Shown here piece after piece: positions 21,587 through 53,225 of a stretch of DNA of 64,000 bases (positions are counted from its first letter, which is position 1; each line of letters opens with the position of its first letter). Location of the stretch: positions 25,360,001-25,424,000 of the forward strand of contig NC_087245.1 of NCBI RefSeq assembly GCF_037042905.1, given 5' to 3'. A program made the translations under genes and the position numbers. Source of the DNA: Lytechinus pictus (taxonomy: Eukaryota). Under the pieces are notes generated by a model. That model was given only the letters and a program-made list of their open reading frames with translations. It did not search any database and was not told where the DNA came from.

Positions 21587-21664
21587 GTAACGGTCAATGA
21601 ATATTCTTGACAATATTGTTTTCTACGGAGCCCGGGAGGGGACATGCATGACAATTTTTTTTTA

Positions 21665-21966: not shown

Positions 21967-24900
21967 TTATAACTACCACGTGATGTCATATAATTATGAA
22001 GAAGGGAGCAGTACGCCGCGCCCGCTAACTCCGGGAAGCTCCGACGCCGACGCCGAAGCTCTCAAACCAAGCCTGGCGAAAATCATCGAAATCGATGGAT
22101 ATAGCGCCAACGTCAACAGACCCGGGTACCCAACATTATAACAACAACAAGAAGAAGACCGGCAGGAAGTTGGTTGGATATTCGATATTCGATATTAAAA
22201 AATTAGGGGTCTTGAAAGCTAACTAGGGGGTTAAACAGGTGCAGCACGTCTCGGGCAACCATAACAACACTGTCACTGGCCTGCCCTAGTAAGAGGACAT
22301 TCAGGGGACAAACGTCAGTGAATAAAAGGGCAGAAAATTGTTATTTTTTTAATTTTTCTTTTCAAGGGGCCCCCAGGGATATCCCGACGGCCTAGCCAGG
22401 GTAACCATGTATCCTATCTTGTATAACTGGACTCGGGCAACAAGATATGCACTAGTTTAACCCGGCGCATGCACATTTAGGGGGCTCAAATTAAATAAAT
22501 TAAAGGAATAAAGGGCTATTTATCGCATCTTTTCAATTTAAAAAAGTATTTTTTGCAAGGGGCCCCCAGGGATATCCCGACGGCCTAGCAATGGTAACCA
22601 CGTATCCTATCTTGTAGAACTGGACTCGGGCAACAAGATAAGCACTAGTTTAACCCGGTGCATGCACATTTAGGGGGCTCAAATTAACAAAATTAAAGGA
22701 ATAAAGGGCTTTTTATCGCATTTTTTCAATTAAAAAAAACATTTTTTTTTTCAAGGGGCCTCCAGGGATATCCCGACGGCCTAGCAAGGGTAACCACGTA
22801 TCCTATCTTCTAGAACAGGACTTGGGCAACAATATACACACTAGCTTGACCCAGCGCATGCACATTTGGGGGGGGGGTAAATTAACAAGGAATACGGGCT
22901 ATTTCAAGCATGGGGAACCACGGTCCCCCCATCCGTTAGGGTTGCCGCCAATGGGTAGAGTAAAAAACAACAAAGAAAGAGAGAAGACAAAAATAAAAGA
23001 GAGAGAAGCGAAAGGGAGAGATAGGAAAGAAAAGGAGGGGGAAAGGGAGAGAAAGAGAATGGAGGGGTCATATTATTGTATGACCAGGATATTTTATGAT
23101 TATGCCCTGAACATTAGGGCGAAGCTCAATGCGAGATTAGAACAAAAAAGAGGGGGCACACCATGGCGCACGCAGCAAATATTTGCTTAATAATAAGTCT
23201 CGAGCGAGCGAAGTGAGCGAAAAAAATCACCTGTAATTTTGAGATTGATTTTGACATGAAATGCAGAAAATGACATCATATCTTTCATCTTCCTTTTCTT
23301 TCTTTCCTTTTATTATTTCTTTTTTGTTCTCGGTTGTAGAACTTTTTTTTTTTGGGGGGGGGGCAGTGCTATGCGGTTCGGGTCCGGGGCAATGACGACA
23401 CCAGGGTTTTTAACCTAGGATGAGGCAAACAAACATTTTGGGGCCGGGGGGATGACACACATTTTTAAAAAAATCGAGCGAGAGTTGCGAGTTAATTTTA
23501 TTTTTATATGCAGTCCCTACTGAATGAAAAAGGGACCTGTTAAGGATCAGCTGTTTCCATTAATTGGGTTATGAAGATGATATCTCACCAAATAAATAGT
23601 GCGAGCGCGAAGCGCGAGCCGAAAATTTTTGATATCCGGGATGATACCTGGCCGTTCTAAGCTTTTTTTTAAATTATGAACTGAATGGCTATCTAATTCG
23701 CTGAAAATATATCATTTTTGAAAATTATGAATTCGCAGGATAATGTATCTTGCTAAAACGAATAATGAAAACTCTAATAATATTGGATTTTTAAGCCCCA
23801 TGTGAAAAGATAATCATTAATAACTGCGAGCGCGTAGCGCGAGCTACATTTTGAATTTTATATAATGGCCTGAAAGATTTATGTTAGTGACTAAAATTGT
23901 TGGGAGCTAAATGCTGTGACGGTGAATGGATGAGAAAATTGTTAAAATTTAAAGAACTAAAAACATTTTTGGAGAATTATATACATTTTTTTTCCTTCAA
24001 ATTTCGGGGGGGGGGCTCAATGGGGCCTCCCCATTCGGTGGCGCCATGCACTGTTCTGGGGCGGAGCCCCCGGAACCTCGTGATATTTTTAAACATTGCA
24101 GATGGCCATTTTTTATCAAATCGCGGGTACATACACCACATATTATATTAAGTTCAACGCAGTTGCGGATAATAAACAAAATATGTTGAGGCAGCACACC
24201 AAAGCAAATGTGGAATAATTAATTTTGAAAAAGTAGCCAGCGAGCGAAGCAAGCCAGAAAATTTTGGCCTTTAAAATGATTTTGAAATCAAATTCTAATT
24301 ATGTGATAGTAGCTTTGGAAATTTAGTCGATCAATCAATCAATAGATTTGGAATTAGTCACGCGATATCGTCTAAAAGAGACATTTTAGTTCATTAAAAT
24401 TTATTGGAGGGGTATAACTCCTTGCTAACTAAATAAATTGAAGGCTAAACATGCAAAATAAAATGTCTCATGAGAATCATTCGAAGATCATAGGAGCTTT
24501 ATACTCATATTTTATATCATGACAATACGTTTTGTATCGATATACGCCCCCATCTTTTCTCCAAGAGATGACGATCTACAACAGAAAGCTAAAGATATTC
24601 ATTCGACCCAACCCATTCTCATTTTTTTTTTTGGTAAGTTGATTACAAAAAAGAGTATGTATAATGATTAGACTGATTATATAAACAAAGAATGAGCAAC
24701 CACTGAACAAATTTTGTGCAAATGAAAGAAAAATACAGGTGTCACTAAGATTTCGGAACTATTTTATTGGCGGAGGAATTAGGACTTAGTATAATACTAG
24801 TAGATGAATAAGATCTGCTCATGAGATGCTTTAACGAGTTGCCCCCTAAATGTGCATGCGCCGGGTCAAGCTAGTGTTTATCTGGTTGCCCGAGTCGAGT

Positions 24901-25820
24901 TCTACAAGTTAGGATACGTGGTTACCCTGGCTAGGCCGTCGGGATATCCCTGGGGGCCCCTTGAAAAAATACTTTATTTTAATTATAAAAAATGCGATAA
25001 ATAGCCCTTTATTCCCTTTAATTTTGTTAATTTGAGCCCCCTAAATGTGCATGCGCCGGGTCAAGCTAGTGTTTATCTGGTTGCCCGAGTCCAGTTCTAC
25101 AAGATAGGATACGTGGTTACCCTTGCTAGGCCGTCGGGATATCCCTGGGGGCCCCTTGAAGAAATACTTTTTAAATTAAAAAAATGCAATAAATAGCCCT
25201 TTATTCCTTTAATTTTGTTAATTTGAGCCCCCTAAATGTGTATGCGCCGGGTCAAACTAGTGTTTATCTGGTTGCCCGAGTCCAGTTCTACAAGATAGGA
25301 TACATGGTTGCCCTGGGTAGGCCGTCGGGATGTGGGGGCCCCTCGAAAAGAAAAATAAAAAAAATAACAATTTTCTGCCCTTTTATTCACTGACGTTTGT
25401 CCCCTGAATGTCCTCTTACTAGGGCAGGCCAGTGACAGTGTTGTTATGGTTGCCCGAGACGTGCTGCATCTGTTTAACCCCCTAGTTAGCTTTCAAGACC
25501 CCTAATTTTTGAATATCGAATATCGAATATTGGTCCAACTTCACACGCGTTTGAATATCGAACCTGAATATCAAACCAACTTCACAGTTTGAATATCGAA
25601 TATCGAATATCCAACCAACTTCCTGCCGGTCTTCTTCTTGTTGTTGTTATAATGTTGGGTACCCGGGTCTGTTGACGTTGGCGCTATATCCATCGATTTC
25701 GATGATTTTCGCCAGGCTTGGTTTGAGAGCTTCGGCGTCGGCGTCGGAGCTTCCTGGAGTTAGCGGGCGCGGCGTACTGCTCCCTTCTTCATAATTATAT
25801 GCCATCACGTGGTAGTTATA

Positions 25821-26123
25821 AATAAGTGGTGGGAACGACTTATAAGTGGTGGGAACGACTTATAAGTGGTGGTAACGACTTATAAGTGGTGGGAACGACT
25901 TATAAGTGGTGGGAACGACTTATAAGTGGTGGGAACGACTTATAAGTGGTGGGAACGACTTATAAGTGGTGGGAACGACTTATAAGTGGTGGTAACGACT
26001 TATAAGTGGTGGGAACGACTTATAAGTGGTGGTAACGACTTATAAGTGGTGGGAACGACTTATAAGTGGTGGGAACGACTTATAAGTGGTGGGAACGACT
26101 TATAAGTGGTGGGAACGACTTAT
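25821..26123 (-). repeat. Minisatellite, 15 x 20 bp, right TIR (reverse complement of the left array)
   Basis: TATAAGTGGTGGGAACGACT units counted directly. Confidence 0.97.
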
Positions 26124-27020
26124 TAAAAAAAAATGTTCATGCATGTCCCCTCTCGGGCTCCGTACTTATCTGCTTCTTCAAATGATACCTCATTCAAAGA
26201 AAACACCCAAGGAAGAACAAAAAAATGCAATCTTTTCCATGAAACTATTATTTTTAGTATTCAGATATGCCTACCGCTCGGCAAAAGACTTTTCGGTATA
26301 CATATCGTGATATTGTTTATGTATCAAAATAAAAAAAATTTAGATGAAAGAAAAAAGATCCAAGCTTCGTTTCTTTCTCGGACATGTTGGATGCGCTGTA
26401 TATCAATTGACCCATTTTTCTTGTTACGTGTTTCATCATGAATCCTTCCCGAACTCTTTTTTTTTAGGGTGTTGCAACCGCAGATGCAATGAATGATCTA
26501 CTTGTTGAGCTGTTAAAAGCTCTTAGGATGAGGCGGATAGGTGGAGATGAAATTAATAATACAGTGACAATCTTGTGATTTTCTTTCAAGATTCTTTCCA
26601 CGAATTTCGTATTATTCCCCTAACCAATACGTCACGTGTTGTCTCCCCTCAAGTAGACCAACTAACCTTACAAGAAAGCCTTCTTGTGGGGGTACACTGG
26701 CACACACACATGTATCACATACACCCTCATGCACACGCCCTTAAGTACACGCACATGCACACCCTCACACACAAACAATCACCCTAACACACACCGAACA
26801 CAACATCACGAACCGCACACCCTCGCACATGGAAATACATTCTCATCCACACACGCACACCCCCACACACGCATCACACATATACCCTCACGTTCAAAAT
26901 TTCACACTCCCGATGAAACATTCTCGCATTAATACACATCCATCCACCTCTCTTTACTCCACTGGCGTAGATGCATTACGTCGCAGTATTTAAGGGGGGT
27001 TGGAATGACAATATAAAAAA

Positions 27021-27256
27021 TAAATAATATAGGATTTGTATAGCGCACTATCCACCTTGCTAGGTGCTCAAGGCGCTCCTATATTACTCCGGCTAAGTTA
27101 GTCTACCGTTCCCAGTGCGCACAGCTTTTTTGAGGAATAACTTACTGCTGGTGCCCATTTACCTCGCCTGGGTTGAGTGCAGCACAATGTGGGTAAATTT
27201 CTTGCTGAAGGAAAACACACCATGGCTTGGAATCGAACCCAAGTCCTTCAGATTGA
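27021..27256 (-). mobile_element. tRNA-derived SINE (degenerate)
   Basis: Minus-strand B-box-like GGGTTCGATTCC near 27230, a core similar to the 54860-55168 copy (GGTGCCCATTT...CTGGGTTGAG), and an AT-rich tail. Confidence 0.65.
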
Positions 27257-27745
27257 AAATAACCCCTCCCCTCCCCGAGCAAAAGAGTCCGCTGCCAGAA
27301 TCTACGCCTGAGTGTGCTTGACTTACTTCTTCCATAACCACATTTTCTCACTTTCTCAGTTTCGTGTCATCTTATACCCTCCTTATCGTCGTATTTTTAT
27401 TTCCATCTTTATGTATATCATTATCATGTACAGTCAAACTTGGAGGATGGAGCTGAACAGTTAAAAATAACTACCGTCTATATAAACACACGGAAAACAT
27501 AACCGGTTTGAAACTGTGTAAACCGTTCAAACCCCAAACTTCTCGAAAATTCACTTTTCATATATTTCCTTCATGAAATGCCCCTCTTCAATTTGTAATT
27601 CCTTGAAAGCAGTTTTATTTAGTACATAAGGGTTGTGCGTTTTATTTCTAGGAAGGGATGATCTTTCTATTCCGTTCAATTTCACCCTCTTATGAGAAAA
27701 AAGCGAAACAACATGAATTATTTGATTTCCTTCATAACTTTTCAG

Positions 27746-27897
27746 GTAAATACATGCATTTTCGGAGGCGTTGATACAACGGGAAGCGCCCTCACATGGT
27801 TCTTTATGGACATTGCAAAGCATCCTGACCATCAGACACAGGTACAGGAAGAGATAGACAATGCTCTCCGTGATCATTCAGAGGATGGCACTGACTG
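27746..27897 (+). CDS. Cytochrome P450 exon 6 (I-helix)
   Basis: tttcag| acceptor and |gtaggt donor. VNTCIFGGVDTTGSALTWFFMDIAKHPDHQTQVQEEID. Confidence 0.92.
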
Positions 27898-28756
27898 GTA
27901 GGTCCTTGAGAGACATTATTACAATTAAAATAATACCTATTATATCAGAAATAGGTTAGATTCGCCATTCTTTCATCGAATACTTGTCTTCCATCTTACG
28001 TTTGCATTGATAAGATTGGGTAATAAATGGATATCTGAATAACTGATACTAGATCATTCGGGTAAATCATGATTAAAGCGAATTATGATTAAACTTATTT
28101 GATATCAGTTGATAAGACTCGGAGGAAATAATTTTCCCGTTTCCAATTATGATAGGAGTATTACGTGCCTGACCAAATAATATTAAACGTGACTTGTTCT
28201 ATGTTTTGTAATTATGGCTCGGTGACACATTGTAAAAGATGACAAAAGACAAGGTCATTTGAGATTATGATGAAAAATACGTGACTCTTTTTTATCTGAG
28301 GCTCGTTGTATTGAATGAAGTTCCTTGCATGGCTCACTGAAATTGATAATATATTGTCAATATCATTTGTTATTCGACATGTCAAAATGTTGTACATGTT
28401 ACAAGTAAACGTCGTTCTTCATGTTCTTGTTGCCCTTTTGCCCTAATGGCTGAGGGTACAATTTAGTTATGCCGTTTTCAGGATTGTGAAATTAAGCATT
28501 TGCTTCAGTATATTATTTTGTAGCCTTCAACAAGCATTTGCTTTTGAAAATATATATGCCTCTGTGACTTAAAACCCTGGAAAAAATTGTTTTCCTACAA
28601 GCAATAATCATTTGGGATTCAAGCAAAATGCTAAGAAAGATACTTTTTGTGCATTTGGCCGATTATCGAAAATGGTCGAAATTATGTTATTTAAAGAAAA
28701 GTTTTTTTCTTATCTTTGTAATCATACAAACAGCACTATACCTATCAAGATGCTAA

Positions 28757-29067
28757 GGTCCGTATGCTGAAGTCGGGTTTAACTTAAACTCAGGTTTAAA
28801 GTTGTGGTTTAAGTACGGAAAGCCAATTGTTACATAAATCACTAACAGTAGAGATATCATATTTCAGCTCATTTGGCTCTCAAATCATTCATAATTGTCT
28901 AGGAAGTATAAATAGATGATTGTCTTCACCATCGATGATTCGGGAAAGAGCTCAGCAAACATAAGAAACATACAACTTAATAAAAATTTTGACACTTTTG
29001 GCTTCCCATAGTTTTAGCACAGAGTTAGACCATGGTCTAAGTTAAACCTGACTTCAGAATACGGGCC
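28757..29067. mobile_element. MITE, PIF/Harbinger-like (copy 2 of the 3089 family), CYP intron 6
   Basis: Body nearly identical to 3089-3400, with the same terminal motif. Confidence 0.85.
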
Positions 29068-29458
29068 TAGGTAACCAAATTAATTCATGTATCATAGGTC
29101 CTACAATAATACAAGGTACAAACGAAATGCTTGTTTTATACGATGGCTGGATTGTAATGACAAGTGTGAATAGAAAATGGTACAGAATGAAGCAGGTTAA
29201 CGGTCTTCTGCAACTTTATTAACTGGCATGGACATAGCGTGGAGACGTATAGAGATTCTCAGGTTCACTGTATCGTTCGGGGGCCAAGTTTAGCCTCTCC
29301 CTCCGATCAGAGACGAATTTCTTTGGATATTATATCCAAAGAAATAATTGCCTTTCAGAAATAAAAACAAATCGAAAACGGGCAATCGTTTCATGCAAAT
29401 GAATTAGATAAAATATTTATAGATATGTCTTATTGTCATTATGCTTATGTCTTTCCAG

Positions 29459-29912
29459 TTATGATGAACACAAGCTCCCATACCTGATGCAGTGCGTCCG
29501 AGAGTCTCTACGTCTCCACGCCATGCTCATGCCAGCAAGGGCTCTGCTGGGACCACTCACCGTAGAGGGCGTCACAATTCCTCCGAAGACCGGCGTCATG
29601 ATAGATTTTTACCAACTACATCACAATCCCGACATATGGGGTGAAGATCACATGGAGTTCCACCCTGAGCGCTTCGACCAGGAGATATCCGCTAAGCGCG
29701 ACCCCCATGCCTTTCTTCCGTTTTCCATTGGTCCACACCAGTGTATCGGGCAGAAGATCGCAATGCAGGAGCTAAAGATAATTGCCATTCGAGTTCTGAG
29801 AAGATTCAGTCTCCGTCTTGTCAAGGAAGCTAAGACAAAGTTTCGGATTGTTGGTAAACCGGCTAGTGAAGTCGTATTAGCAATCAGACATAGAAAAGGT
29901 CCCGATATTTAG
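29459..29912 (+). CDS. Cytochrome P450 exon 7 (K-helix, PERF, heme-binding Cys, stop codon)
   Basis: ttccag| acceptor. Contains ESLR (ExxR), HHNPDIW, PERF and PFSIGPHQCIG. The seven exons total 1521 nt, or 506 aa plus stop, with no frameshift. Confidence 0.95.
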
Positions 29913-33685: not shown

Positions 33686-34183
33686 GACCCCGTCTTACAA
33701 AGATTATTTTACGATTGATCCGATCAACCTCAAGTGTATGGAAATCCATCAATATCATAATTTTTTCTTCAGGAACGTTGTACAATATCCTTTGTAAACA
33801 AAGAGAAGCACACTGGATTATCAAGTAAAATGTGAATATAATATATACATCATATCTAGAAATTATTCTAAATAAACATGTATTTAAGATGTTGACATTG
33901 TTCGCTTTCCATAGATGTGGTTGATTGGATCAATCGTAACTCTTAAGGGATGTTGCAAGAAAACATTTGCGATCAATTGCAAATATTCTGTTGCAATTTT
34001 ACAACTGATAGATCAACGTTAGCTGTAGCAAATCAGATTAAACTTCTTGTTTCAAGGAGCAAATTAGCAATCAATCACTAATTTGCAATAAACTGCAAGA
34101 CATTTAATTGATTTAGGGACCAAAAATTGACTTGCAATTGATCGCAAGTTTCTTGCAACACCCCATTAGTGTAAGACGGGGCA
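33686..34183. mobile_element. MITE containing a nested second MITE (33947-34164)
   Basis: Outer TIR CCCCGTCTTACA / TGTAAGACGGGG flanked by CTG. Inner TIR GGGATGTTGCAAGAAA / TTTCTTGCAACACCCC interrupts the outer right TIR. Confidence 0.7.
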
Positions 34184-36484
34184 CTGGTATGCATGCACGT
34201 AAAAATATGTCCCTATTTTGCTTTATACAGCGGAAGGTGTAATGGAGTGCTGAAGAGCGATTACTATTTATCTGAAGCTATTTATCTGAATAACAATAAA
34301 CACACAATGACAGGCAATTTTGTAAATAAACGACGTCTTTTTCAATTTATTTGTGGGGAATTCTAAGGAAATATGAATATACAGCATTTATGAAATGTAC
34401 AACCATTTACAATATTTGATCCTTCTTGGAATTTACTAGCAGCAGATTGCATGTGGTTTATTCTGCTACATGAATGCGATATAATTACACAATTATAGGC
34501 ATTGTTACATAAATCCAGATCGTTGTTTTTTTTACTTCTTCTTTTTTTTTTATTCTAGACTTACTAAAGAAAGGCCTGAAGAATAAAGCGAGTATACCTT
34601 GATGAAATTAATGGATGTAATCAAATGAACTAGAAATAACGTTCCATTATACATAATGAAATTTGCATTCTTATCATGATTACAGATTAATACGTTTGGA
34701 AAAGGAATACCCGTTTAGATTAATTCTAAAATTTACCGGGTGACAGGCGCTAATTCTGGGGGAAAAAGGGACCAATGCCGAATGAGTAGGGCTTGTTCAT
34801 TGAATGGTATTAAACATTTTCTTGTTTGGTTGGCTATCGACAATTACGACATTCATGCACTATAGTATTTAAAAATTATCTCGGATTATACATGTTGACC
34901 AACAATTATACATTACATAGTCATCTGATGCAAGCAACATCCATAAAGAAAATTCTTTTGTCAAATATACATTGAACTTTCCTTTAAAAGAACAGTATTG
35001 TAATTTACATATTTTGCATTTACTCCCACCCCAATCGGACATGCATCTTGAAATGGTACTCTCGAACTTTTTCCTCCAAAGAAATATGATATTGTATTTA
35101 TCTTCATAATACACTTTATCGCCATTGCCTACATTCATTCAGTAATATAGATCTGTATTTTGTAGGGGGCACCTCTTTATAAACATACTTAGTTTTATTT
35201 GAAATAAAAAAAAATGAATGTCAAACTTTTTAACGAATTTTCGAATATATATATATTTTTTATTTATTTATATCTTGAAGAGTCATTTAGATTGTTCTTA
35301 CCTATGCATGACTTGTTTTACTGATTCCTCACTTTTACACAAAAGTTAATTAGTGTATAAACACGTCAATTTATTAAAGATAGGAATATTAATTACTTTG
35401 GAGAACATACTTTCTGCATTATACAAAGCCCACCTTTAACAGTGGCAAGGCAAACACATCAAGACAAGGAATTTTGTTTTAACTCTCGGTGTTTCGGTAT
35501 CGTTTTCCTGATTCCTCGGCGTTTTGTAATAATTCTTACCTTACTATATTTCTAATAAAGGCCTATTAAAACAAGAAGTATATACATATATTGTTGCTTC
35601 ATCCAAAGATCGAAATGTTCAGTACTTATGCATGACTACAGCACACACCAAATCTTGAGTTATAATTTTTCTCCATTTCATATACATCTTTGCTCCAGTG
35701 CATCAATTCCTTTTCCAATCTGATAATTGACCAGAAATATCGTTTTTTTTTTTATTTGAACTGTTGTGATATAATTAAATCATACCAAATGTTATGATTT
35801 CCTTTTTGTTTGGTGCCTAACATCGAGATGAGATGAATATTATTGAAATGAAAATACATACTATTTCGCATTTTAGTTTTACTTTTAGTCCTTCTGAAAG
35901 ATGCATTCATACATATATCATACTGACAAACATTTTAGTTACAGATAATTATAGATTTACAATATACTTTGAAATCGATTTATACTAAATTAATTCTACT
36001 CCTACTAACATGATTGATAGGGACAATGTGTGGGCAGAAAGGAACAAAGGCTTTACTACGCAATATAATACAGTATTATATGAGTGATATAATCAGCAAA
36101 ATAGTTAAACATGACAATATTACAAATTGATAATGAAAAAAAAAAGAAATTCCAAGGAAAAAAAGGGCTAACGCTATCGATCTAATGACTGTGATTTCTT
36201 GGAACCTCTAATGCCGTAGTTGAAAAGAAAATTTTTATACATTATTTGTAGTAATAGATGACATTTGTACACTAAATGAGGGACGATTGTTCGTTTAACA
36301 GTATTTGAGAAATTATAAAGGTGAAGTACTTATGGACGTTAAGCTGCAGTATACAATGATCCTGCCACCTAGGGTAGTAAAAGTTACCCCAAACGAAAAT
36401 GAAAATACGAAAGATAAGTAATTACAATATCATTTAATTTCACAAGGCCTTTTTCTGTGCACTTTCTTATTCAACGAAATGTCA

Positions 36485-36787
36485 TCAATCTGTGTTCTCG
36501 AAGAGGTCAGCGAAGTCGGTAAACCTCTGCCTGGCAGGAAGTAGGTTGCCCTCTGACGGTGACCTCCTGCTAAAGATGGACCATCCGTAATCTGTCTTGT
36601 CCTTGGGTTTATCCGCTAATGACGCAAGGAGTCGCTGACGCGTTTCCGGCCTTGGTTTGAGCTCGAATGCCTCCTCCAGCGTCTGTCGTAGGTCATCGTA
36701 ACCCTCGCGACCAAGGGGTGTGGCCGTGACTACCAAGAGTAGTGTGCATGCGCAGTAGAGGAAGGCTACGACCACGTGTGACTTCAT
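36485..36787 (-). CDS. Secreted neuropeptide precursor, gastrin/cholecystokinin(sulfakinin)-like, 100 aa, single coding exon
   Basis: Splice acceptor ttttacatcag| at 36803, 16 nt before an AACAACATG start. Signal peptide MKSHVVVAFLYCACTLLLVVTA. Motif KTDYGWSIF-SRRS. GC-rich island in AT-rich flanks. Minus-strand AATAAA near 34346-34351. Confidence 0.75.
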   Translation of the reverse strand: MKSHVVVAFLYCACTLLLVVTATPLGREGYDDLRQTLEEAFELKPRPETRQRLLASLADKPKDKTDYGWSIFSRRSPSEGNLLPARQRFTDFADLFENTD

Positions 36788-38411
36788 GTTGTTGGTATAG
36801 TCCCTGATGTAAAAACACATACAAGTTAAAATGAGTGAGAACACCATTAGAACTTAACCTACTCCAAATTACAACATATACCGCATAAGGTCATGCGCAC
36901 AAGAGCATGCATTTAAAACTGACCAATGAAGTTGCATTGAACTGGAAATGACAACTTGAGGTAACATCGATCAGTGGATTAGTGGTCCGAGATGCAGTGA
37001 TACGCGTCCGGTGAGAACTAACCGAATACATTTGACATCAGATTGCGCTCCCCCTTTCGTGAGAGTAATGGCCGGGGGTATGACATAAATTTTAGCAATT
37101 GATTTTGGAATTGATTTCAAAATTTGATTACATTGATTATTGTGTATCATCAATCGTAAAATTCACGCATCATTCGCCGAGCTTTGAGTTGCAAAATGGT
37201 TTGCGTAAAGCAGGCCCATAAGTTTAAACATTTCATACGATAACTCACATTAGTACGTTTATCCTCCGTTTCAGAAACTACTATGACTTTCACGCACATT
37301 AACGCTAGCATGGGGTTCAACACATTTCCGTAATTATTTTCATTTTAATATCATGGTCCTATACGACTATGTGTCAGGACAATTTGTGCCATTATATCTA
37401 GATATTTTGCCAGATGTGATCATTCTATCAAATCAACATACATGACCTGTTGCTTATGAAGAGTTAGCTAATGAAAATCAATTAAATGAAACTTTGAACA
37501 TAATTTCTAGTAAAAATAAGGAAATGGGCCTTATATAAGAATAATAAAATTGGGCAAATATACCATAAACACAAACGCAAATATAGACATATCATAACAT
37601 TAGCGTTTTTAAAGATTTGTGCATTTTATTCCCCCAATGATATCTAAAGAAATACTTGTTTCTGCACGTGACAATTTTTTTGTTATTTAACTTTTACAGG
37701 GATTTCTTTTTACATAAGTAGCGAAATAAGTCATTTGAATAAAAAAAATGGCAATGGGTAAAATCGAAATGCATTTAACAGTAGACTGGCCGTTCGAAAA
37801 TTTACTTCATGTTGATAATAACAAAAATACAGAGCAGTTTTGAGATAATTTATTTTTAAAATTCAATTTACTAGGAATCGAAAATTAATCTAACCGCAGA
37901 AAAGACTAGAAATATCAAGCTGCGGAGAACAAAACGAAATATGAGATGAACTTGAGAAGAGTTTGTGGATATAAGATAAGCCATTGTGTTCTCACTTTTT
38001 ACCACAACCACTTAACATTAAATCCTTTGCCTAAGATCTGATGTTAAAAAAACGAGTAAAATTTGTGAGAGTCTAGTAGAGAGAGAGAGAGAGAGAAAGA
38101 GAGAAAGTATGTGGAGAGTAATGTAGAGAGAGAGAGAACAGAGAGAGTAGTTTTTCATCAGAAAATGAAAACAAGTAATGAGAACGAAAAAGCTGGATAC
38201 TTATGTTGGTAAAGGTAGGCCTGGGTGAGGGTGTGGGTGTATGTGTGTGCGTGTGCGGATGTGTGTGTAAGTTAGTAGATATGATTGTAGGTGTTCCTGT
38301 GAGTGCGCTCGTGTGCGTGCTCGTTGTTATGCTCGTGGGTGTACGCGTGGGTATGCTCGTGTGTGTATCGGGTTGGTATGATCGTGTGTGTGCGCGAGGG
38401 TGTGCTAGAGG

Positions 38412-41110
38412 GTAGTAGTAGTAGTAGTAGTAGTAGTAGTATTTATTTCCGTATTAAAAGCATAATTATATACAATAGAATACGGTGGATAGCCCACATT
38501 CAGCTTGACTGTGCCAGTCACGCTGGTCTTCCGTGGGGTCCAAAAACATTCAACATTAACATAGCAGTTAGTCACAATAAAACCAGATTAAAATAACAGA
38601 TGTATAGAAAATAAATGAAAACAGTGACGAACATAAATGATTAAAAATACAAATATCAACAGAAAACATATTTAGATAAAACACAGCAAATAGAAGAAAA
38701 AAAATGAAGGGGTGCAAACCTAACGGGGAAGGAAGAAGGGGTACCGGGGTCCATGTGCTACAGATCAACCATCCTAGATTTAAAAATAATAACACTATGG
38801 GATGATTTAATATGAGGAAGAAGGGAATTATAAGCCATGGCGCTTTTATACTTGAAGGATCTTTTGAAGTAATTTGTTTTTGGTTTGGGTAATTTAAATT
38901 TGGTTCCAAAACGGGAGGGATACGCGTGTGATACAAACTCAAATTCATTTCTTAACTATTTTGGGGATAGATTATTCATGATTTTATACATGAGAATAAG
39001 GGAATGATCGCTTCTTCTTTTGTCCAGCGATTGCCAATTAAGTGTATTATGCATTTCTAAAATAGATATATGGGATTCGGGTTTAATCTGAAGTATGATA
39101 CGGCCTGCTGTTTTGTAGTTTTTTAAGGCGGTCTGTGTATTTCCTGAAGGATGCATCGTAAACAACACCACCATAATCATAGTAGGGGGATCAATGATCT
39201 ATACATTAATTTTAGAATCGATTCACTTAGGGATCGCCGCAATCTTCCCAGAAAGCCGACTAATTGACCTATTTTTTGCAACATTAAAATTCAAATAATC
39301 ATCATTTATCATGCCTAGGTATATGACATGATGAACTTGTTCTAAAAGGGTATTATTTAAGGACACATGAAGGATATTTTGTTTAGAAATCATATTCTTG
39401 CTTCCAATGAGCATACAGACCGTTTTTATTTGGACAGTTAACACTTAACTTGTTCTGGCACATCCATTGGTACATATTTTCTAAATCTGAGTTCAGGGCC
39501 TCGTTGATTCTATCAATGGAGGGGTGTGAAAATTCAAATCCGCATCCGCACACAATAGGATATGGCAGGTCTTTAATACATTTCACTAAATCATTGACAT
39601 ATAATGTAAAGAGCAGTGGCCCCAGGAGTGATCCCTGGGGCACACCGCAATTCATAACTGATTCATAAGAGAGTTCCGAATTAGTAAGAGTCCTAAGATC
39701 CCGGTTTGACTTGTAACTCCGAAACCATAAGGATGGTAAGCCCAAAATACCTAAGTTATTCATTCTTTTCATAAGAATATCACAATTCACGGTGTCGAAT
39801 GCCTTTTTTTAAATCGACGAAGACGGCCCCAATGTAATGTTTCACATCGATTGGGTGAAACCAGTCATCAGTAACCTTTAGGAGAGTAGTAATGGTTGAG
39901 TGCCGTGGCCGAAAACCGGATTGGGCAGGTGTCAAAATGTAATTCTTTCGCAAAAAATCTAAAACTTGCCGTTGGACAGCCCTTTCGAGTGTTTTTAGAT
40001 ACGCAGGGCAAAATCGAGATGGGCCAATAATTCGAAGGAGAATTTTTATCGCCACCTTTGTAAATTGGGATAATCTTGGCTTTTTTCCATTGTTGCGGAA
40101 ATATACCACTTAACAAAGATAAATTGACCAACTTAGTAATACTCATTGGTATCTCCATAGCGCATGCCTTCAAAACAAAGACAGACGTAGTGTTCCTAAG
40201 ATTTCTGATGATTTTCAAGACATCATGTTTGTTCACCTGAGTAAATGCAAAAGTCTCATTTGTATGATTATCATTTTCTGTATGGGGGTTTATATCAGGT
40301 ATTTCACTGACTAATTGTCTCCATACATTTGTAAAGTAAGTGTTGAATAGGTTAGCAGTTACAGTATCACAATCCGATTTAGACGAAACTGTAGGTATTT
40401 CACTTTTTTTATTTGGAATAATGGTCTTTAAGGTTTTCCATGTCTGTTTTGGGTTTACCGTAAAATTTGTAAATTAATTTAAATAATACCGTTTCTTTGG
40501 TTTCCTTACTTCATTTGTTAACTTATTTCGTAATATTCTATACTCGCGCATAAGTTTTTCATCTTTCAGCTTGCAGGCTTTTAAAAAAAAGTTTGTCACA
40601 TTTTTTTCACGAGTTTGTAAATATTTGCATTCATCCAAGGGAAACCTTTTGTACTTATTCTTTTCGAACGATTTGGCATGTGTTTGTCAACAACTTGTAA
40701 AAACATATTTTGCCACAATTCGACAGCATCATCAACTGAATTACATTGATCTTTACTTTCCCAATTCTAGTTACGAATATCACTTCTAAAGTCATCACCA
40801 TTGAGCTTGCTGCAACATCTGAAAGTGATAAATTTTTGGCTGAGCACAAATTTTAGAGTTCCAGGTCAGCATGGTCAGGAAGCTAATCGAATAGTCACTC
40901 ATTCCGTTATGAATTACACCATGATTCACTATGTTTTGGGTGTTGATTTTTGAGATGTGTCGTTGTTGGTGATTGTGCAGTTATTAGATAAGCAATGTTG
41001 GTAATTTTTAATTGTTCAAACGACATTAAAAATAGCTCCCAGCTATGGTTAATCTTGCATTTGAAATGCCACTACATTGGTCGCATGTCCTATTTCAATA
41101 TTTAAATCCG
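38412..41110 (-). mobile_element. Decayed L2/CR1-group non-LTR retrotransposon (ORF2 with frameshifts and stops)
   Basis: RT fragments WKKAKIIPIYKGGDKNSPSNYWPISILP, QSGFRPRHST and GVPQGSLLGPLLFTLYVNDL. YADD has decayed to CADA. 3' end is AATAAA plus a (TAC)n tail at 38412-38447. The 5' boundary is approximate. Confidence 0.9.
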
Positions 41111-44100
41111 AGTATTCTACTTTTGAACTTTAAATATCTTCTCATCCATAACCGGGGGCAAGAATAAACCCAATTGTCATAGGAAATGAGATCAATGCTT
41201 AAAAAAAGGCACCTTCAAATACACCTTTGCCTTTTTCTAAATCCTAAGATTCGAAACGACCAAGGAGTGTGTTAACCTCACGATCCTGAGGCTACAGAGA
41301 AATCAATGACTGGTAACGAGGCTCATTGACTCCAAGCGCCAAAGGAAATCATATAAGAAAACAGTGGAATCTAGGTTTCTGTATTTATCCAACCGTTGAA
41401 CGATCCCTGTCGAACTTAGGTGAGAAAGACAAATTGTGAAGGTATCTGTCTCATATTGTATCATCGCTGCAGCTTGCAGGATGGACGTGATACCTGTACT
41501 AGGACAGTGCATCGTAGAATTAGGCGTGACTGGAATACGAAATACCAATATATATACATAACTGAAGCCTTGATACCAAAGTCTAAACCATTCAGAAATA
41601 CATTACTTCTTTTCGTTTAAAAATATAATTATGGTCATCCGATCTTTGTTTCAAATAAGATAATAATACAAATTTTGTTTTCTGTCATAAACAGTATAGT
41701 GGAAGAAAAACGGCGGACAATATTTATCAATCTAATGGGAATAAATTGAAAGACTACATGATCGAAATGTTTCATCCTTGGTAAGAATCAAGGAACTGTT
41801 TGAACGGGTTTGGTCTTGAGCTGATGCTGTTCAAAGCATCTGTCGTATGGTAGCCTTAAATAATGGAAAAATTTAATTTTCTTACCACTGTGATTTATCA
41901 GCCTCAGCATAATTCAACTTTTGTCAATAATGTTACGCATTATTGAGAAACCTATGTACTTTACCCTATTCCATTCGGTCGTTGGTCTTCATGTGTAGAA
42001 CAGCTTTGTAGAACTGGCACCGTGTATGATCTTAAGTAAAAGGGGATTTTTTAAATCTTTTTTTTGCTGGGGTTTCTAGTATTCATATTCCCAAATTGTA
42101 TCCTTTTCTATTTAACACTAAATAATGAATATCATAATAAGGAATAGAGATGCTGGAGATGCTGGATAATGTCGAAGCAGGAGGTCTTGGATCCCATCGA
42201 CAACTACTCACAGTTTGCAATGAGCTACCCAGATGCTGTTCTCAAGATTTCGAATTTCCAGAAAATGGGGACGTGTCTCTTATGATGGTTAAAAAGTGCA
42301 TTGGGTTCCTGGAGACCTGAAAAAATCGTATAAAATCGAATGAAGATTGGGAGGGGCTGGAGCTGAGTGACATGTGAACGATTGACCGCGGGCATCCACC
42401 GAAATGAAGCCACCATCTGATTCGATTATCGCGAGAAACTGACTCCATAGTGAGCTTAAACGCCACCGTGGTAGGGCAGTAGCTGAAGGGTAAGGCTGAA
42501 TCCCTTATAAGACCCAATTCATTATGTAGGCTTCTCCCAAGCTCATACCACTAATCAAGATGGATATGATGTAAGATGACGTCGCAATCAACACTCTGAT
42601 TTGGGGATCATCGTTCTCTGTCAACATGGTCAAGCCGTGAAATATCTTAATCTTGACATGCTATTAAAGGCCTATGGATAACGATGATATTGGCTACTAA
42701 AGACACAGGTCTACTTTCTACTACCAATGATGCTTTTAATGGGGGAAAATAAATACAATCATTTACAGGGGCCAACAAAAACGTGATAAAGAAAGTAACG
42801 GACAAAGTAGCATCGAACCCAAAATGATATTGATCCAATAAGTAGATTGATAACCAGGAAAAAAAGTGGAAAAGACGCAAGATATCATAAATGGACATAA
42901 CATAAACTCTAAAATTGTTAAAATATACAGCTGAGATGCTGATAATTAAACTTTACGAACAGTCTAAGGAACATTTAAACCCGTAGTTTGAAAAAAATGA
43001 ACTACAGTGACCTTTCTTCAGCACATACAAAACGGTTTATTAGAAACCATTCACTTGTATAAAACCAGGTTCAACCTTTCCCCAATGAAACTTTCCATAC
43101 CGTGAAAAGTATAAGCGTGCATCACCTCAAATAAACATAATTTTCTCCCTTGACTGCATTGTATTTCTCAAAATTATTTATCTTAGAACAAGTCTGATAC
43201 TGTATGCCTACAGCATTTTGAATGCAAAACTGTGTGTTTTGTTTTTAATATGTATCACCCAAAAAAGAATACATAAATAAAACAAAATGAAAAACCAGAA
43301 GTTGATTATCGACTGTTTCTAAATGGTATTTTACCGTTTTGCATCAATGTTTTGCATCAATGATTCTACGTCCCCAACGTTGTTTTGCTGCAACGATAGA
43401 ACCAGAAATGTCCTTTTTTCTAATTCATATAACGTTTTCAATTTCATGTTTTAAAAACACCTCACTTCCCTTTCTGAATATAGACCGAATGAAATTATTT
43501 TTTCCCTCGAACTTTACCAAAATAACATCCCAAGAAAATGTATTTCAAGGGCAGGGGCGCCACTTAGCATTACTGTGTCAAGTGAAACCTGAGAGAGCGT
43601 AGGATAGTTCATGTTCGCATGCATAAGCTTTAAAGTGCTTTAGTGAATTCTTGATATTGGTTACGTTGTGGTTATGGGTGAAAGTGCATCAGTGGAAAGT
43701 AACGTGGTTAGACGTTTCGTGATGCTTTTCTCAAGAAATCAAAGAAAGAAAGGATGAAAACTTGTTCCGCATGACTATCTCTGCATGGCTTTAAAATGAT
43801 GAGAGCGAGCTGGCAAACGGTTTGGATAAAAGTGCTCGTGCTTCTCCTCTTTTCTAGCCAATTAACTCCATGTGACGCAACCGTTGGCAATTCGAATTAA
43901 TTGGAAACAACGGAACTGTGGGAATCAATTGATATTACACGTGGGCAGGAAACATTCTACAGACTGCAATCGAAGCCGAATTGAAAATGTGTAAAGATGG
44001 TTATTCGTTTATACACTCACCTATTGCCCTGTAAAGTAAAAGGGGGAATCACATGTAGTCATGAACTAAATTGTCTTTGAACAGACAACATCGTCTCAAA

Positions 44101-46129: not shown

Positions 46130-46755
46130 AGCCCCTTTCACAATTGACGTGCGACCTGTTTACGACCGCCTGCAACAGTTTTTTCTTGTTGTTGCACGAT
46201 CGATCTCTTGGTGTCTTGCGAGCACTCTCAGTGGTTGTAGACGAACGCACGAATTTGAGGTGGTCGGAGGTGGTCGTGACTGGTCGCATCTGAATTTGAA
46301 CATGTTCAAAATCCAAACGCGATCAAATACGATTGATTTACTCGCATCAGGTCGTACCATCGGTCGGGCGATCATCGTGTGAGTGTTGTTCAACGTTGTA
46401 CGACTTGGTGCGAGAGGTGACACAACTACGTATAGTCGCATATAGTCGACTGGAGGTCGTACAACACTTGCACATGCGCTAGATACCTACAGAGACCAGT
46501 CTTGCGACTGGTTGCGATAATATAAGACTGTTGCAAGACCGATCGAAATTACGGCTTACAACATTCCAATACCGTTGCATTCGCATGTATGCGACCGTAC
46601 AGCCCCTTTCACAATTGACATCCGACCAGTTTACGACCGCCTGCAACAGTTTTTTCCTGCTGTTGCACGATCGATCTCTTGGTGACTTGCGAGCACTCGC
46701 AGTCGTTGTAGACGGTCGCACGAACTCAAGGTGGTCGTGACTGGTCACATCTGGA
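46130..46755. mobile_element. Two tandem truncated copies of a DNA-transposon end (Harbinger-like)
   Basis: AGCCCCTTTCACAATTGAC...TTTACGACCGCCTGCAACAG starts at both 46130 and 46601. No matching opposite end was seen. Confidence 0.6.
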
Positions 46756-48628: not shown

Positions 48629-51262
48629 TAGTCTGGTCTGTTAGCGGAATTATGTGGACACGGTGGACAAAAGCATGATTTTTTCTCCAGACCTCTGTTT
48701 ATGTATGAGAATTAAAAATGGGGTATGCTCCAAAAAATCTGGCTGCAGGAACAGTGAAAAAATGGGTGAAAATGTCAGAATTTATGAGTTTAGATTGGTC
48801 TGATATATAGACTAGCGCTAGTGCAAAACTCAATAGCAGTGCATTATTTTGCATTGGTTTAGTTCTTGAATTCAGACCCTTTTTGAACAGATATTCTGTT
48901 TGTCCTCACATCTCAATGCACTAAATATCTGAATGCAGATGCTAAACAAGCCGAAGGGTGGTGGTGGAGGGGGTTGAATGTTGGTGTGTATGTACATATT
49001 TTGGTCTTGGGGTAAAGATGTGCAAGACACATTTTTTTGCATGTGTTGGAAATTGTGTTGCCATGGTAACAGTGTATTATGGCAAAAATAAGGTACAAAT
49101 CTTGCAGTTAGAACTACTTCCTCTGTTGTCACCCGATTCTCATGAAATTTGGCACACACATTGGTCTTGAGGTGAAGATGTCTAAGGCACATTTTGTGTG
49201 TCTTTCAAAAATCTTGTTACCATGGTAACAACATATTATTTGGTGAAAATTGGGGAAAAAATTACAATTCAAACTGCTTCATCAGTTTTAAATCAATTCT
49301 CATGAAATTTGACACACACATTGGTATTAGAGTAAAGATGTACAAGGCACTTTTTGTGATTGTTTCAGAAATTGTGTTGCCATGGTAACAACATGTTATA
49401 TGGCAAAATTTAGGTAAAAACCTTGCAATTTGAAAAGTTGGAAGAAATATTCATCTTTGGGTAAAGATTCATATTAAATTCTAAACTGCATTAAAATATA
49501 TGAGTGTGGGGGTATTAATCACCTTCAGTAATATTTCTAGGTTTTGGGGGAGGAGCGGGATTGGTCCTTAAAATCTGACCTCAAAATAAAGGTTAAAGGC
49601 GGTGTCCATTAGCACTCTTGAAATAAGCATCCCCTCAAGGGCATAGGCTGGGGGTACACTGGGTGAATGTGAAACCTTCCGCTCTGGCAAAGGAGTTCCA
49701 ACACTGGCAAGCAAAACAAAATGTGTACCCCTTCTACTTTCAACGGCTGATTTTCCGAACCTTAGTTCCACCTTCCCAAGATGTGCACCCCTCCCCATAC
49801 CACTTCTATCTCCCTATGCTCAACCAGTCTACACCTTTGCCCCTCAGGGGTCTTTGTATTTTAAAGCGAGACATTACTCCCTTTTTTTTTGGGGGGGGTC
49901 TTTAGAAAATGACCTCATAAAAGTAAAAGTTAAAGGATTATGACTAAGAACTTAACCCCCCCCCCCCGCAAACAAATGGGGCTGATATATTTTTTGAGCA
50001 GAAAAATGCCCCCCCCCCCATTAAAAGGTAAGAAGATTCATTTGCACTTCAGAGTTCAGACCATTCATTTGATGTTTAATGCATTCTGCTTTGGTAAAAA
50101 ATTGTTTACAGTAGCCAATTAATCATTGTTTATTTATATTCTCATACTCAGTCTTTTATTCATATTCCATTCCTACTCTTTCTTTTTAACTATATCACAT
50201 CACTCTTGATTTTGAGCTTCACCATACCATCTTATGTTTCCTCTCTCCTTTTTTTACCCTCTCTTCTCTCCAAGTATATTTTTTCTGACATATTATAAAG
50301 TGAACCTTTAATCATGCAACTAATTATAGAAATATATATATATATATACAAAAATCTCTGCACTTGTTTTAGAAATTCACTTGCAAATCCATGACTCAAT
50401 AGCATACCATATCAAAAATATGCATATGTGCACAATAATTTTTTGCCTTCAATTTTATTTCATTTAATTTTTTCAGTTTAATTGTCAAAAAATGAATATT
50501 ATGTTTCAGTAGCAAAATTGTTGGATGCAAGATCTGACTGTCACAAAAAATGCAAATAATTTTGCATTGGAGTAAGGACGAACGTATTCACTGTTCATTG
50601 AGCAAATGATGACTTTTATTTCTCTACATATATTCTAGTCATATCCCTTTCAGATGGTGGTAACTGCAGGAATGGGAAAACTCTGTGATATAACTAAAAT
50701 TTTCACAGAGGATTTTCGGAAAACAACTAAATCCATTTTTTTTTCAAGCAACAGTTATTCCATTCTGAATGCTGCAACTATGAATTTGATGCACCTTTAC
50801 CGAAATATAATATCATGACAGCCATTTCTTCAATTCTTTAAACTAGACATTAAATATAGCTAATAGTATTATTTAGGACAGAGTGTAGCCAAAATAGAGT
50901 TTAGAAGATTATGAAGAAAAGAATAAATGTCATGGTATTATATTTCAGTGTAGGTGTAAGCATTCAAAATGGAATAATTGTTGCTAGATAATAATGAATT
51001 AAAATAGCCAAAAAAATGTACTTAGAGAGGGAGAAAAAGAGGGGGGGAGGAGGAAACAAAACAAGAAGGTATGGTAAAGCTCTAAAGTGCAAAAAGTGCA
51101 AAAAGTGATGTAAGAAAGTCAGAGTAAACACTGAAATGAACAAAGACTGAGTAGAAGGAGATAAATAAAACGTTGATTAATTGGGCACCGGAAATGATCT
51201 TTTATCAAACCAGAATGTTTTAGGCTTTAAATTAATACGCTGAAGTGTAAAGGATTTTTCTT

Positions 51263-51293
<31 letters not shown>

Positions 51294-53225
51294 TTGGGGG
51301 GGGGGGGGTCAGTTCCTAGTTGTAATTATTTCCTTTTACTCTTTATGTGGCAATTTTCTAAAGGCCCCCCCCCAAAAAAAAAAAAAATAAATAATAAATA
51401 AATAAAAAATGGAAGGGGTGCTTTCTTTAAGAGTGTTTAAGTTCCTAATGGCCATGTCCTTTAACCTTCTATATTTTTATATTGTAAGTTTTTAAGGACC
51501 TCCTCCGCCCCCCCCAAAAAAAAGAACCTATAAATATTATTGAAGGTGATTAATACCATGAATACCCTGTGCTATTTTATGATGTTAAAGGGGAATCCAA
51601 ACCAAATAAACACTTGTTTTTATGAGGAAAAGAAAAAATCAGACAATAGGTCAAGGTTTGAACAATATCGGACAAACCATAAGTAAGTTGTGAATATATA
51701 AAAGTTGTAAACATTGGTAATCACTATATACCCATGAAGACTTCAAATTGGCCGCACATGTAATGTCATAATGATGTAAGGGAAGGACCACTCTTCCATG
51801 TACAGAAATAATTAATTGACTAAAATGTCTTTTTCAAAAGTTTTACTTCAAATTGTATCTTTCTTTCATGAGGACATTAAAGCATTATACTAACAGGTTT
51901 ATATTACGGCCCCAATGAAATTTAGGAGAAAAACAAAAATCAAAGTACAAGGCCAATGGGAAAGTTGTCCTTGCGGCCTCACCCCTTGTCATAATTTACT
52001 TACCCATTATCAATTTGAAATCTACATACTAGTAGCCTTAGGGATCTTAATTTTAAAGCAGCCATAACTTTATTTTGCTTGTCCGATTGCTTTCAAACTT
52101 TCACCATTCTTATTTTTCTCCTTTTCCACACAACATTTTATGACCAAGGCTGGATTCCCCTTTAACACTGAATGTGAATCTTTACCCAAAATGAATATTT
52201 GTGTAAACTTTTCTGAGCACAGGCTGAAAACTGAGAAGTAGATTGATCCACAATTGATGAGTTTTCCCTGCATTTCTGGCTATATGTGGTTATCAAGGCA
52301 ATGCACTCTCTGACAAATGAAAAAAAAAGGTTCTTGCACATCTTTATCTCAAGGCCAATGTGTGAGCCATATCATGCATGAGAATTGGTTTGAAACTGAT
52401 GAAGTAGTTCAAATTGCAAGGTTTTTACCTAAATTTTGCCATATAACATGTTGTTACCATGGCAACACAATTTCTGAAACAATCACAAAAAGTGCCTTGT
52501 ACATCTTTACTTTAATACCAATGTGTGTGCCAAATTTCATGAGAATTGATTTAAAACTGATGAAGCAGTTTGAATTGTAAGGTTTTTTCCCCAATTTTCA
52601 CCAAATGTTATGTTGTTACCATGGCAACAAAATTTCCGAAAGACACACAAAATGTGTCTTAGTCATCTTCACCTCAAGACCAATGTGTGTGCCAAATTTC
52701 ATGAGAATCGGGTGACAACAGAGGAAGAAGTTCTAACTGCAAGATTTGTACCTTATTTTTGCCATAATACACTGTTACCATGGCAACACAATTTCCAACA
52801 CATGCAAAAAAATGTGTCTTGCACATCTTTACCCCAAGACCAAAATATGTACATACACACCAACATTCAACCCCCTCCACCACCACCCTTCGGCTTGTTT
52901 AGCATCTGCATTCAGATATTTAGTGCATTGAGATGTGAGGACAAACAGAATATCTGTTCAAAAAGGGTCTGAATTCAAGAACTAAACCAATGCAAAATAA
53001 TGCACTGCTATTGAGTTTTGCACTAGCGCTAGTCTATATATCAGACCAATCTAAACTCATAAATTCTGACATTTTCACCCATTTTTTCACTGTTCCTGCA
53101 GCCAGATTTTTTGGAGCATACCCCATTTTTAATTCTTATACATAAACAAAGGTCTGGAGAAAAAATCATGCTTTTGTCCACTGTGTCCACAAGTAGGGTG
53201 TTTTTGACGCTAACAGACCGGACTA
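48629..53225. mobile_element. Large palindromic non-autonomous DNA transposon, Academ-like
   Basis: ATA|TAGTCTGGTCTGTTAGCG ... CGCTAACAGACCGGACTA|ATA (3-bp TSD, TAG/CTA termini). Near-identical TIRs at 48629-49434 and 52408-53225. Confidence 0.85.
51589..52161. mobile_element. Kolobok-like non-autonomous element nested in the Academ-like element
   Basis: TTAA|AGGGGAATCCA ... TGGATTCCCCT|TTAA. Confidence 0.8.

Follow-up and report, generated by a model that had tools for sequence, protein, structure and literature searches.

Peptides of the sulfakinin/cholecystokinin (SK/CCK) class carry a conserved Tyr, typically within the sequence DYG, which stands six residues from the C-terminal amide in Ambulacraria and five to seven in Bilateria at large (PMC8428848). 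The same paper treats C-terminal amidation as conserved in these peptides across Bilateria, and the SK/CCK receptors of starfish and sea cucumbers need sulfated peptides (PMC8428848 among other sources). Echinoderm SK/CCK genes have a single coding exon, and recent work treats sea cucumbers as having one SK/CCK precursor (PMC13548532). In this first precursor (CCK1; for example ArSK/CCKP and AjSK/CCKP), two or three amidated peptides, each with six residues after Tyr, are proven receptor agonists.

A second CCK-type precursor is known from brittle stars. Three ‘Cholecystokinin 2’ precursors (O. victoriae, O. aranea and A. filiformis; files 4-6) are printed in the supplement of PMC5627052, where the label was given from sequence alone. 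Their peptide follows the CCK1 pattern, DYG-x-G-M-x-F-GKR, as does that of a crinoid single-peptide precursor ending in F-GKR-SP (PMC9793003 supplement). For S. purpuratus, PMC5627052 lists a ‘CCKP2’ with an F-amide, credited to Menschaert et al. The sea-urchin and sea-cucumber peptides previously annotated as cholecystokinin-related (citing Menschaert) were reassigned to kisspeptin precursor 2 (KPP2), also a single-exon gene (PMC9400282). A further family, HOLleu_41384 of sea cucumbers (H. leucospilota KAJ8019697.1; S. cf. horrens), is catalogued as hypothetical or as a putatively novel precursor, with no link to CCK drawn in the accessible text of PMC11868395.

The window analysed here, a 64,000-nucleotide stretch of the Lytechinus pictus genome (G000:C1:25,360,001-25,424,000), very probably holds the sea-urchin orthologue of the brittle-star gene, a transcribed, spliced, single-copy neuropeptide precursor. 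In every sea-urchin-type sequence recovered, Ser has become fixed at the place of the amide-donor Gly.

The gene and its transcripts

The minus strand from 36787 to 36485 encodes 100 residues with a hydrophobic N-terminus (hydropathy 1.2-2.6 in 11-residue windows starting at residues 1-16); the plus strand of the same interval is closed. The earlier note, which did not state the strand, had read here a signal peptide and a single KDKTDYGWSIF-S-RR-S with codons at 36563-36592, and hydropathy and translation agree with it. D66 starts at 36592, the AGC codon at the Gly position occupies 36571-36569, and R75 ends at 36563. A change at base 36571 separates this codon by one transition from GGC, as had been claimed. 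The features of the gene are as follows.

36485..36787, minus strand: whole coding sequence of the CCKP2-type precursor (100 aa, one exon), from translation; single copy, with one match at E<=10 in the 812-Mb genome, a search in which distant paralogues may be missed
36722..36787, minus strand: predicted signal peptide, residues 1-22, from hydropathy; probable cleavage before T23, TATP being invariant in 6/6 aligned sequences
36620..36640, minus strand: RQRLLAS, residues 50-56; probably cleaved at a monobasic site to give the mature N-terminus; 7/7 in the five other rows of alignment A3, RLLASL in brittle-star CCKP2, and sea-cucumber mass spectrometry (MS)
36569..36637, minus strand: predicted mature peptide, residues 51-73, a 23-mer with a free C-terminal Ser; unmodified mass 2638.375; pyroGlu and sulfo-Tyr expected
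36569..36592, minus strand: CCK-like core DYGWSIFS, residues 66-73; 8/8 identical in a relative at 79% identity
36569..36571, minus strand: Ser73 codon AGC at the amide-donor Gly position; Ser in 6/6 sea-urchin-type and Gly in 6/6 sea-cucumber-type sequences
36563..36568, minus strand: dibasic cleavage site RR; invariant, and cleaved in the sea-cucumber orthologue
36488..36562, minus strand: C-terminal flanking peptide of 25 aa with R-x-x-D-F, mass 2839.341; its equivalent was found by MS in sea-cucumber nerve cord
36788..36805, minus strand: acceptor site with its AG at 36805-36804, followed by 16 nt of 5′ UTR, from contig ends and the AG position
34690..36484, minus strand: minimum extent of the 3′ UTR, from contigs (∼1.8 kb); candidate AATAAA signals lie beyond, at 34554 and 34462

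The peptide motif by itself is not proof of a gene. The pattern [DE]YG[WF]xxFx[KR]R occurs once in the window's 127,996 six-frame residues, against an expected 0.0004 per window, but ∼5 chance occurrences are expected per genome; orthologues and splicing supply the proof. Transcription, for which the earlier note had asked, was examined in four of 23 sequencing runs and is supported by contigs of X2 and X7, which are presumed to be RNA. They cover the 3′ UTR, stop matching at the AG acceptor (36804) and continue with 231 and 133 bases, respectively, that do not match there. They also have zero depth over 40938-43205, as expected of spliced RNA. Judged by the junction and their size, the run-on bases would be the upstream non-coding exon, which lies ∼55 kb away outside the window with its GT donor at G000:C1:25451820. 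Two raw RNA runs, X21 and X22, gave zero depth over the gene in the ∼6% of each that was covered.

The S. purpuratus orthologue (XP_011661412, LOC105436997; annotated ‘uncharacterized’) is 91% identical to this protein over 105 residues and is modelled at 165 aa. Its extra N-terminus maps to the exon 55 kb upstream, and because two TAA stops interrupt the S. purpuratus-type extension here, that exon is read as 5′ UTR. The 165-aa model start was therefore rejected in favour of M1, and a 120-aa ORF was rejected as reading through the intron. Just upstream of the non-coding first exon, outside the window, lies a perfect cAMP-response-element palindrome, TGACGTCA (L071:1830-1837; G000:C1, ∼25,452,150), with ATTGG boxes nearby.

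Several other features were seen in the window. A cytochrome P450 gene spans 16460-29912 on the plus strand (last exon PF00067, E 5e-33); the ORF at 16460 looks like a P450 membrane-anchor exon and has no Pfam match. Broken pieces of non-LTR retrotransposons lie in the intron of the precursor gene at 39383-40473 (minus) and 61631-62158 (plus). The first holds an RVT_1 match (39386-39808, E 5.5e-10), and the second, with no Pfam match, looks by eye like the C-terminal part of a LINE. Reads pile up heavily on high-copy repeats at 33709-33944, 46295-46753, 48872-49500 and 52317-52972; the first of these is MITE-like with inverted ends (an opposite-strand joint), and near-identical ORFs occur at 48872 and 52610. 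Long trinucleotide simple repeats at 942-1319 and 55246-55609 give poly-His, poly-Met/Val and poly-Leu/Ser ORFs that are not genes.

Relatives of the precursor

Relatives were sought by word-based and exhaustive sequence searches, widened by cluster look-ups, and fell into two groups that share the same layout. The first is sea-urchin-type: this protein and P0002-P0006, with orthologues at 93% and down to 79% identity, all six reading DYGWSIF-S-RR. The second is sea-cucumber-type: P0009-P0014, at 37-40% identity (E 1e-14 pairwise) and including H. leucospilota HOLleu_41384, all six reading [DN]YG-x-x-x-F-G-RR. These 12 sequences represent this genome plus five 90% clusters, and the number of independent species is hence below 12. 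The counts leave out P0008, which reads the P0003 gene with a frameshift (43 consistent codons in a run). Chance matches without the peptide were dropped, namely the repeat protein P0007 and L024/L025, two of 194 pattern matches in metagenome contigs.

The Ser is thus no accident of one assembly. Its presence in 6/6 sea-urchin-type sequences, S. purpuratus XP_011661412 among them, excludes an assembly error or a private allele; the earlier note had listed the former as a way in which its reading might fail and had itself raised a loss-of-function allele. Its main proposal, a divergent CCK/sulfakinin-type paralogue, is supported, and the genomic sequence cannot yield an amidated peptide. The expectation that orthologues would conserve DYGWxxF held in all six sea-urchin-type sequences, but the sea-cucumber type shows [DN]YG-x-x-x-F with Met, Ile or Leu in place of Trp. 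The five-residue Tyr spacing is common to the sea-urchin and all six sea-cucumber-type sequences. After the peptide, P0011-P0014 (Holothuria-type) have a tetrabasic G-RRRR without the Ser, and P0009 and P0010 have G-RR-S.

Conservation is uneven along the precursor. Between this protein and its 79% relative, the core is identical at 8/8 positions and RQRLLAS at 7/7, with 5/9 in the linker, 17/25 in the tail and 20/27 in the pro-region. A perfect core is to be set against 77-79% identity over the whole protein, and its chance probability is ∼0.1 at a background of 0.77. Across classes, RQRLLAS is conserved at 7/7 positions versus 3-4/8 for the CCK-like core, and R-x-x-D-F of the tail is invariant in the alignment. 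The RQRLLAS DNA pattern occurs genome-wide at chance level (47 matches versus 37 in the control); of 30 such loci examined, four had the exact motif, and Y-G...F followed it only in this gene. Pfam gave no meaningful match for this protein or its relatives, and none for the CCK1 and KPP2 controls. The nearest ESM Atlas clusters, which serve as a lead only, are assorted small secreted proteins and neuropeptide precursors at 0.87-0.92, with Gastrin at rank 17 (0.87).

Judged by sequence, the orthologue of this gene in brittle stars is very probably CCK-type precursor 2, and the gene is filed in that orthologue group (CCKP2). Both precursors are ∼100 aa long with a single peptide. By eye, both show KP-x-P, then RLLASL and DYG...F, next S-P or S-S-P behind a dibasic site, and R-x-R in the tail. 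The O. victoriae precursor printed in PMC5627052 is collinear with this protein, again by eye, through KPRP, RQ, RLLASL, DYG, F, RSPS and RQR. The brittle-star peptide differs in having six residues after Tyr and G-KR, and is thus amidated, whereas here there are five, then Ser and RR. Sequence searches for relatives returned no ophiuroid protein or genome. The HOLleu_41384 family is 37% identical over 95 columns (E 1e-14), shares RQRLLAS, Y-G-x-x-x-F, RR and R-x-x-D-F, and is processed in the radial nerve cord (PMC11868395). It keeps the Gly where the sea-urchin gene has Ser, and has an extra RK site in the linker.

Canonical CCK1 is intact in this genome. It lies at G000:C1:20.21 Mb on the same strand, 5.2 Mb from CCKP2 on the same 44.3-Mb contig, and encodes three Gly-Lys-Arg peptides. 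A genome-wide search for the six-residue CCK pattern gave 18 matches (control 30), and only the three CCK1 peptides stood in a precursor-like frame. CCK1 and CCKP2 both have one coding exon, with 9 and 16 nt, respectively, from acceptor to ATG. The peptides share acidic-Tyr-Gly and an aromatic residue at Tyr+2, and the flanking-peptide motif F-x-D-F-A (F-T-D-F-A here) resembles the Y-E-D-F-V end of CCK1. Multiple amidated peptides, six-residue spacing and proven agonism are features of SK/CCK precursor 1 that CCKP2 here lacks. The DYG core, D-F tail, exon layout, linkage and the crinoid single-peptide precursor argue for paralogy of CCKP2 and CCK1. Against it, when the A3 family profile was compared with the CCK1 of this genome, no match over the whole length reached significance (hhalign probability 1.3, E 0.04).

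Membership of the canonical SK/CCK class is another matter. D66-Y67-G68 is the DYG of the class, and a secreted precursor is indicated by the hydrophobic N-terminus, the invariant RR and MS evidence of processing in the orthologue. The peptide has five residues from Tyr to Phe72, which is outside the ambulacrarian rule and within the bilaterian range only. No C-terminal Phe or Trp amide is encoded, Ser taking the place of its Gly in 6/6 sea-urchin-type sequences, and because of this missing amide the peptide is kept out of the canonical class.

Two other identities were considered. The gastrin relation that the earlier note had drawn stands as far as the Tyr-Gly-Trp-x-x-Phe spacing goes (the gastrin Tyr is position 6 from the end; PMC8428848). 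However, the nearest relatives are brittle-star CCKP2 and the unnamed sea-cucumber precursor, and the peptide reads W-S-I-F-S, with neither the Met-Asp nor the amide of chordate Trp-Met-Asp-Phe-amide (PMC9899899). Pfam Gastrin does not match this protein, and the CCK1 control also misses. On the sequences compared, the likeness is convergent, because the spacing is shared with sea cucumbers that have Met, Ile or Leu at the place of Trp, and because the Asp of WMDF is absent. The note had also allowed for a match to an already described, unrelated precursor. Kisspeptin-type precursor 2, a class marked by G-x-F or G-x-x-F amide peptides, was rejected, being a separate locus (G000:C9:20.32 Mb) with no similarity to this protein (E 1.1). 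SpKPP2 (XP_011683115.1) shares only the old name and a Y-G...F ending with this gene, and the S. purpuratus CCKP2 of PMC5627052 does not fit it either, because an F-amide is stated. The KPP2 orthologue of this genome (L023:1323-1925) lacks the short KR-bounded spacer that precedes the first peptide in S. purpuratus.

Predicted processing and action of the Ser-ended peptide

The earlier note had let the peptide start at KDK. Conservation of RQRLLAS and the sea-cucumber MS data point instead to Q51 as the probable start, and no dibasic site separates R50 from the core in the sea-urchin protein. The S. cf. horrens precursor (‘Hypothetical protein HOLleu_41384’, Table 2 of PMC11868395) is letter-identical to P0010, and four of its peptides were sequenced by MS from radial nerve cord. 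Two end ahead of RQRLLAS, one of them directly before its first Arg, and two begin directly after G-RR; the CCK-like amidated peptide itself is absent from the four listed in that paper. In brittle-star CCK2, a run of basic residues precedes RLLASL (PMC5627052 supplement). RQRLLAS would then not be a spacer but the beginning of the hormone itself. Peptidylglycine α-amidating monooxygenase (PAM) requires a Gly for C-terminal amidation, and the product Q51-S73 would therefore have a free C-terminus; this Ser-acid form would weigh 88.02 Da more than the Phe-amide form. Tyr67, which adjoins an acidic residue, is probably sulfated.

One SK/CCK receptor gene is detectable in the genome. A CCK-receptor TM7 pattern gave one genomic match, whose best PDB matches are human CCK-A and then CCK-B, and a paralogue search with a 36-residue exon query scored 75 bits for self and 33 bits for the next genomic matches. 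The gene lies at L026:1441-1701 and L027-L030 (G000:C5:47.866-47.894 Mb), with four upstream exon frames within 30 kb. In the numbering of bioRxiv 2021.05.19.444887, the receptor keeps Asn6.55 and Tyr7.43, is without Arg6.58, and has Arg at 7.39 where human CCK-A has Leu356.

In an ungapped reading, agreement between the core and the CCK1 peptides extends as far as their penultimate aromatic residue; the final Phe-amide is absent. CCK fragments without the last Phe or its amide are antagonists or partial agonists on mammalian receptors. Mammalian non-amidated gastrins are almost inactive (PMC9899899), and the CCK amide is hydrogen-bonded in the CCK-A pocket (bioRxiv 2021.05.19.444887). These likenesses suggest a modulator or antagonist with its ‘address kept, message lost’. 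Our preferred explanation, tentatively held for the whole chain including history and processing, is that the predicted non-amidated 23-mer acts as a weak or partial agonist, or as an antagonist, at the single SK/CCK receptor. CCKP2 would have split off from the multi-peptide CCK1 gene; one residue would then have been lost between Tyr and Phe in the line of sea urchins and sea cucumbers, and GGC would have become AGC in sea urchins. The precursor would be cleaved after R50 and R75 and the RR trimmed, with no amidation, to leave residues 51-73, which would begin with pyroGlu, end in a free Ser and probably bear a sulfated Tyr67. This peptide would keep the sulfo-Tyr-Gly-Trp ‘address’ without the Phe-amide ‘message’, still dock on the receptor and, once docked, damp the signal by which the three CCK1 peptides inhibit feeding. 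The sulfated-address argument is weakened by Asn, not Asp, before the Tyr in two of the six sea-cucumber-type sequences (P0009 and P0010).

An unlikely but serious alternative holds that the same non-amidated product signals through an orphan GPCR that reads the N-terminal RLLAS, freedom from the CCK receptor having allowed the loss of residue and amide. RQRLLAS has stayed unchanged between sea urchins and sea cucumbers, in contrast to the drifting core. The sole CCK receptor seen (besides five other GPCR-like or unrelated matches) already has three canonical ligands, and the peptide has made two successive departures from the six-residue amidated ambulacrarian pattern (PMC8428848). However, a receptor blind to the C-terminal end would not require the exact DYGW found in 6/6 sea-urchin-type sequences, and no candidate receptor was identified.

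Rather less likely is that the CCK-like core is vestigial in sea urchins, with selection acting on what flanks it, either the N-terminal pro-peptide or the peptide that follows RR. All four MS peptides of the sea-cucumber orthologue are flanking peptides (PMC11868395), and the tail R-x-x-D-F is invariant. Mutation of the Gly is, moreover, the usual route by which peptide copies are lost in echinoderm precursors (PMC5627052), which also counts against our preferred explanation. Yet the 79% relative, which has diverged in tail (17/25) and pro-region (20/27), keeps the core complete (8/8). Sulfated and hydrophobic peptides are also readily missed by MS.

Adenosine-to-inosine editing of base 36571, an improbable reading, would turn AGC into IGC, read as Gly, so that part or all of the mRNA would give an amidated peptide as in sea cucumbers. 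The A stands in the U-A-G context that ADAR prefers, and AGC is also present at the Ser site in the 79% relative, as the frameshifted P0008 shows. Synonymous third bases of codons 66-80 match at 12/13 positions, versus 14/26 elsewhere (Fisher one-sided p 0.017; longest-run permutation p 0.033, for a region picked post hoc). A short local hairpin can put the A opposite a C, but it is gone in windows of at least 121 nt, and the 79% relative departs from its 3′ arm at three third bases. The X2 contig has one unlisted, unlocated difference in 551 bases, and four UTR contigs have none in 1265. In the 64 kb, however, no complementary element stood out: the best reached −40.7 kcal/mol, against −33.7 to −39.9 for seven other CDS 42-mers and −34.9 to −43.5 for eight shuffles. 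Among 17 sites, the top-ranked partner in the 3′ UTR carries a change in organism B at 35438, where it faces the A. P0005, which starts at Met without the intronic extension, is carried by five contigs and is probably spliced RNA, reads Ser.

The AGC kept in its U-A-G context, together with the surplus of conserved synonymous bases around it, nonetheless keeps alive, as a similarly long shot, an editing switch. The genome would hard-wire the inactive or antagonist Ser form and neuron-specific editing would recreate Gly, so that amidation is turned on or off and one gene gives an agonist or a blocker of the same CCK receptor. A literature search, at the level of titles and listings, found no paper on editing as an amidation switch. 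As an observation in its own right, third-base conservation in codons 66-80 (36548-36592, minus strand) exceeds that of the rest of the gene between this species and its 79% relative.

It is very unlikely that the Ser-acid form acts on the CCK receptor as a full agonist, with Ser restoring six residues after Tyr and the TM7 Arg neutralising the free carboxylate. The receptor does have Arg at 7.39 with Arg missing at 6.58, and the core aligns ungapped with the three CCK1 peptides to its last residue, but Ser would then stand in for the terminal aromatic residue. The TM7 Arg need not be an adaptation to a Ser-acid ligand, because the sea-cucumber receptor also has Arg residues there, modelled as binding Asp residues of its ligand (PMC13548532). 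Least likely of all, the CCKP2 group would not descend from CCK and DYG...F would be convergent, as with the mis-assigned kisspeptin precursor 2: whole-precursor similarity to CCK1 is lacking and echinoderm ‘CCK2’ assignments have been wrong before (PMC9400282), but the brittle-star peptide is the CCK1 pattern residue by residue, the crinoid single-peptide precursor has the same pattern and then GKR-SP (PMC9793003), and tail motif, exon layout and linkage are common to CCKP2 and CCK1.

Novelty and meaning

The gene is seemingly undescribed in sea urchins, as the earlier note had supposed. DYGWSIF was absent from the literature searched, although S. purpuratus peptidomics (Menschaert 2010, Monroe 2018) and some supplements and figures might list peptides of the gene. 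Neither LOC105436997 nor XP_011661412 was found in the papers listed for them, and among the searched papers only PMC11868395 contains any of six family motifs. The family is known from brittle stars; what appears new is its presence in sea urchins and sea cucumbers, the change in steps, and the fixation of a CCK-like peptide that cannot be amidated.

The catalogue of echinoderm precursors is corrected in two places. Sea cucumbers would gain a second precursor, and the sea-urchin ‘CCKP2’ slot had been filled by a kisspeptin gene. There is also a modest applied angle in the control of feeding in farmed urchins and sea cucumbers.

The sea-urchin lineage has fixed and kept a genetically non-amidatable version of CCK beside a CCK1 system that is intact and has one receptor. 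Few GPCR antagonists of natural origin are known. The three classes form a natural three-step series, with six residues and an amide in the brittle star, five and an amide in the sea cucumber, and five and a Ser acid in the sea urchin. From such a series it would emerge how a paralogous peptide parts from its receptor or comes to oppose it.
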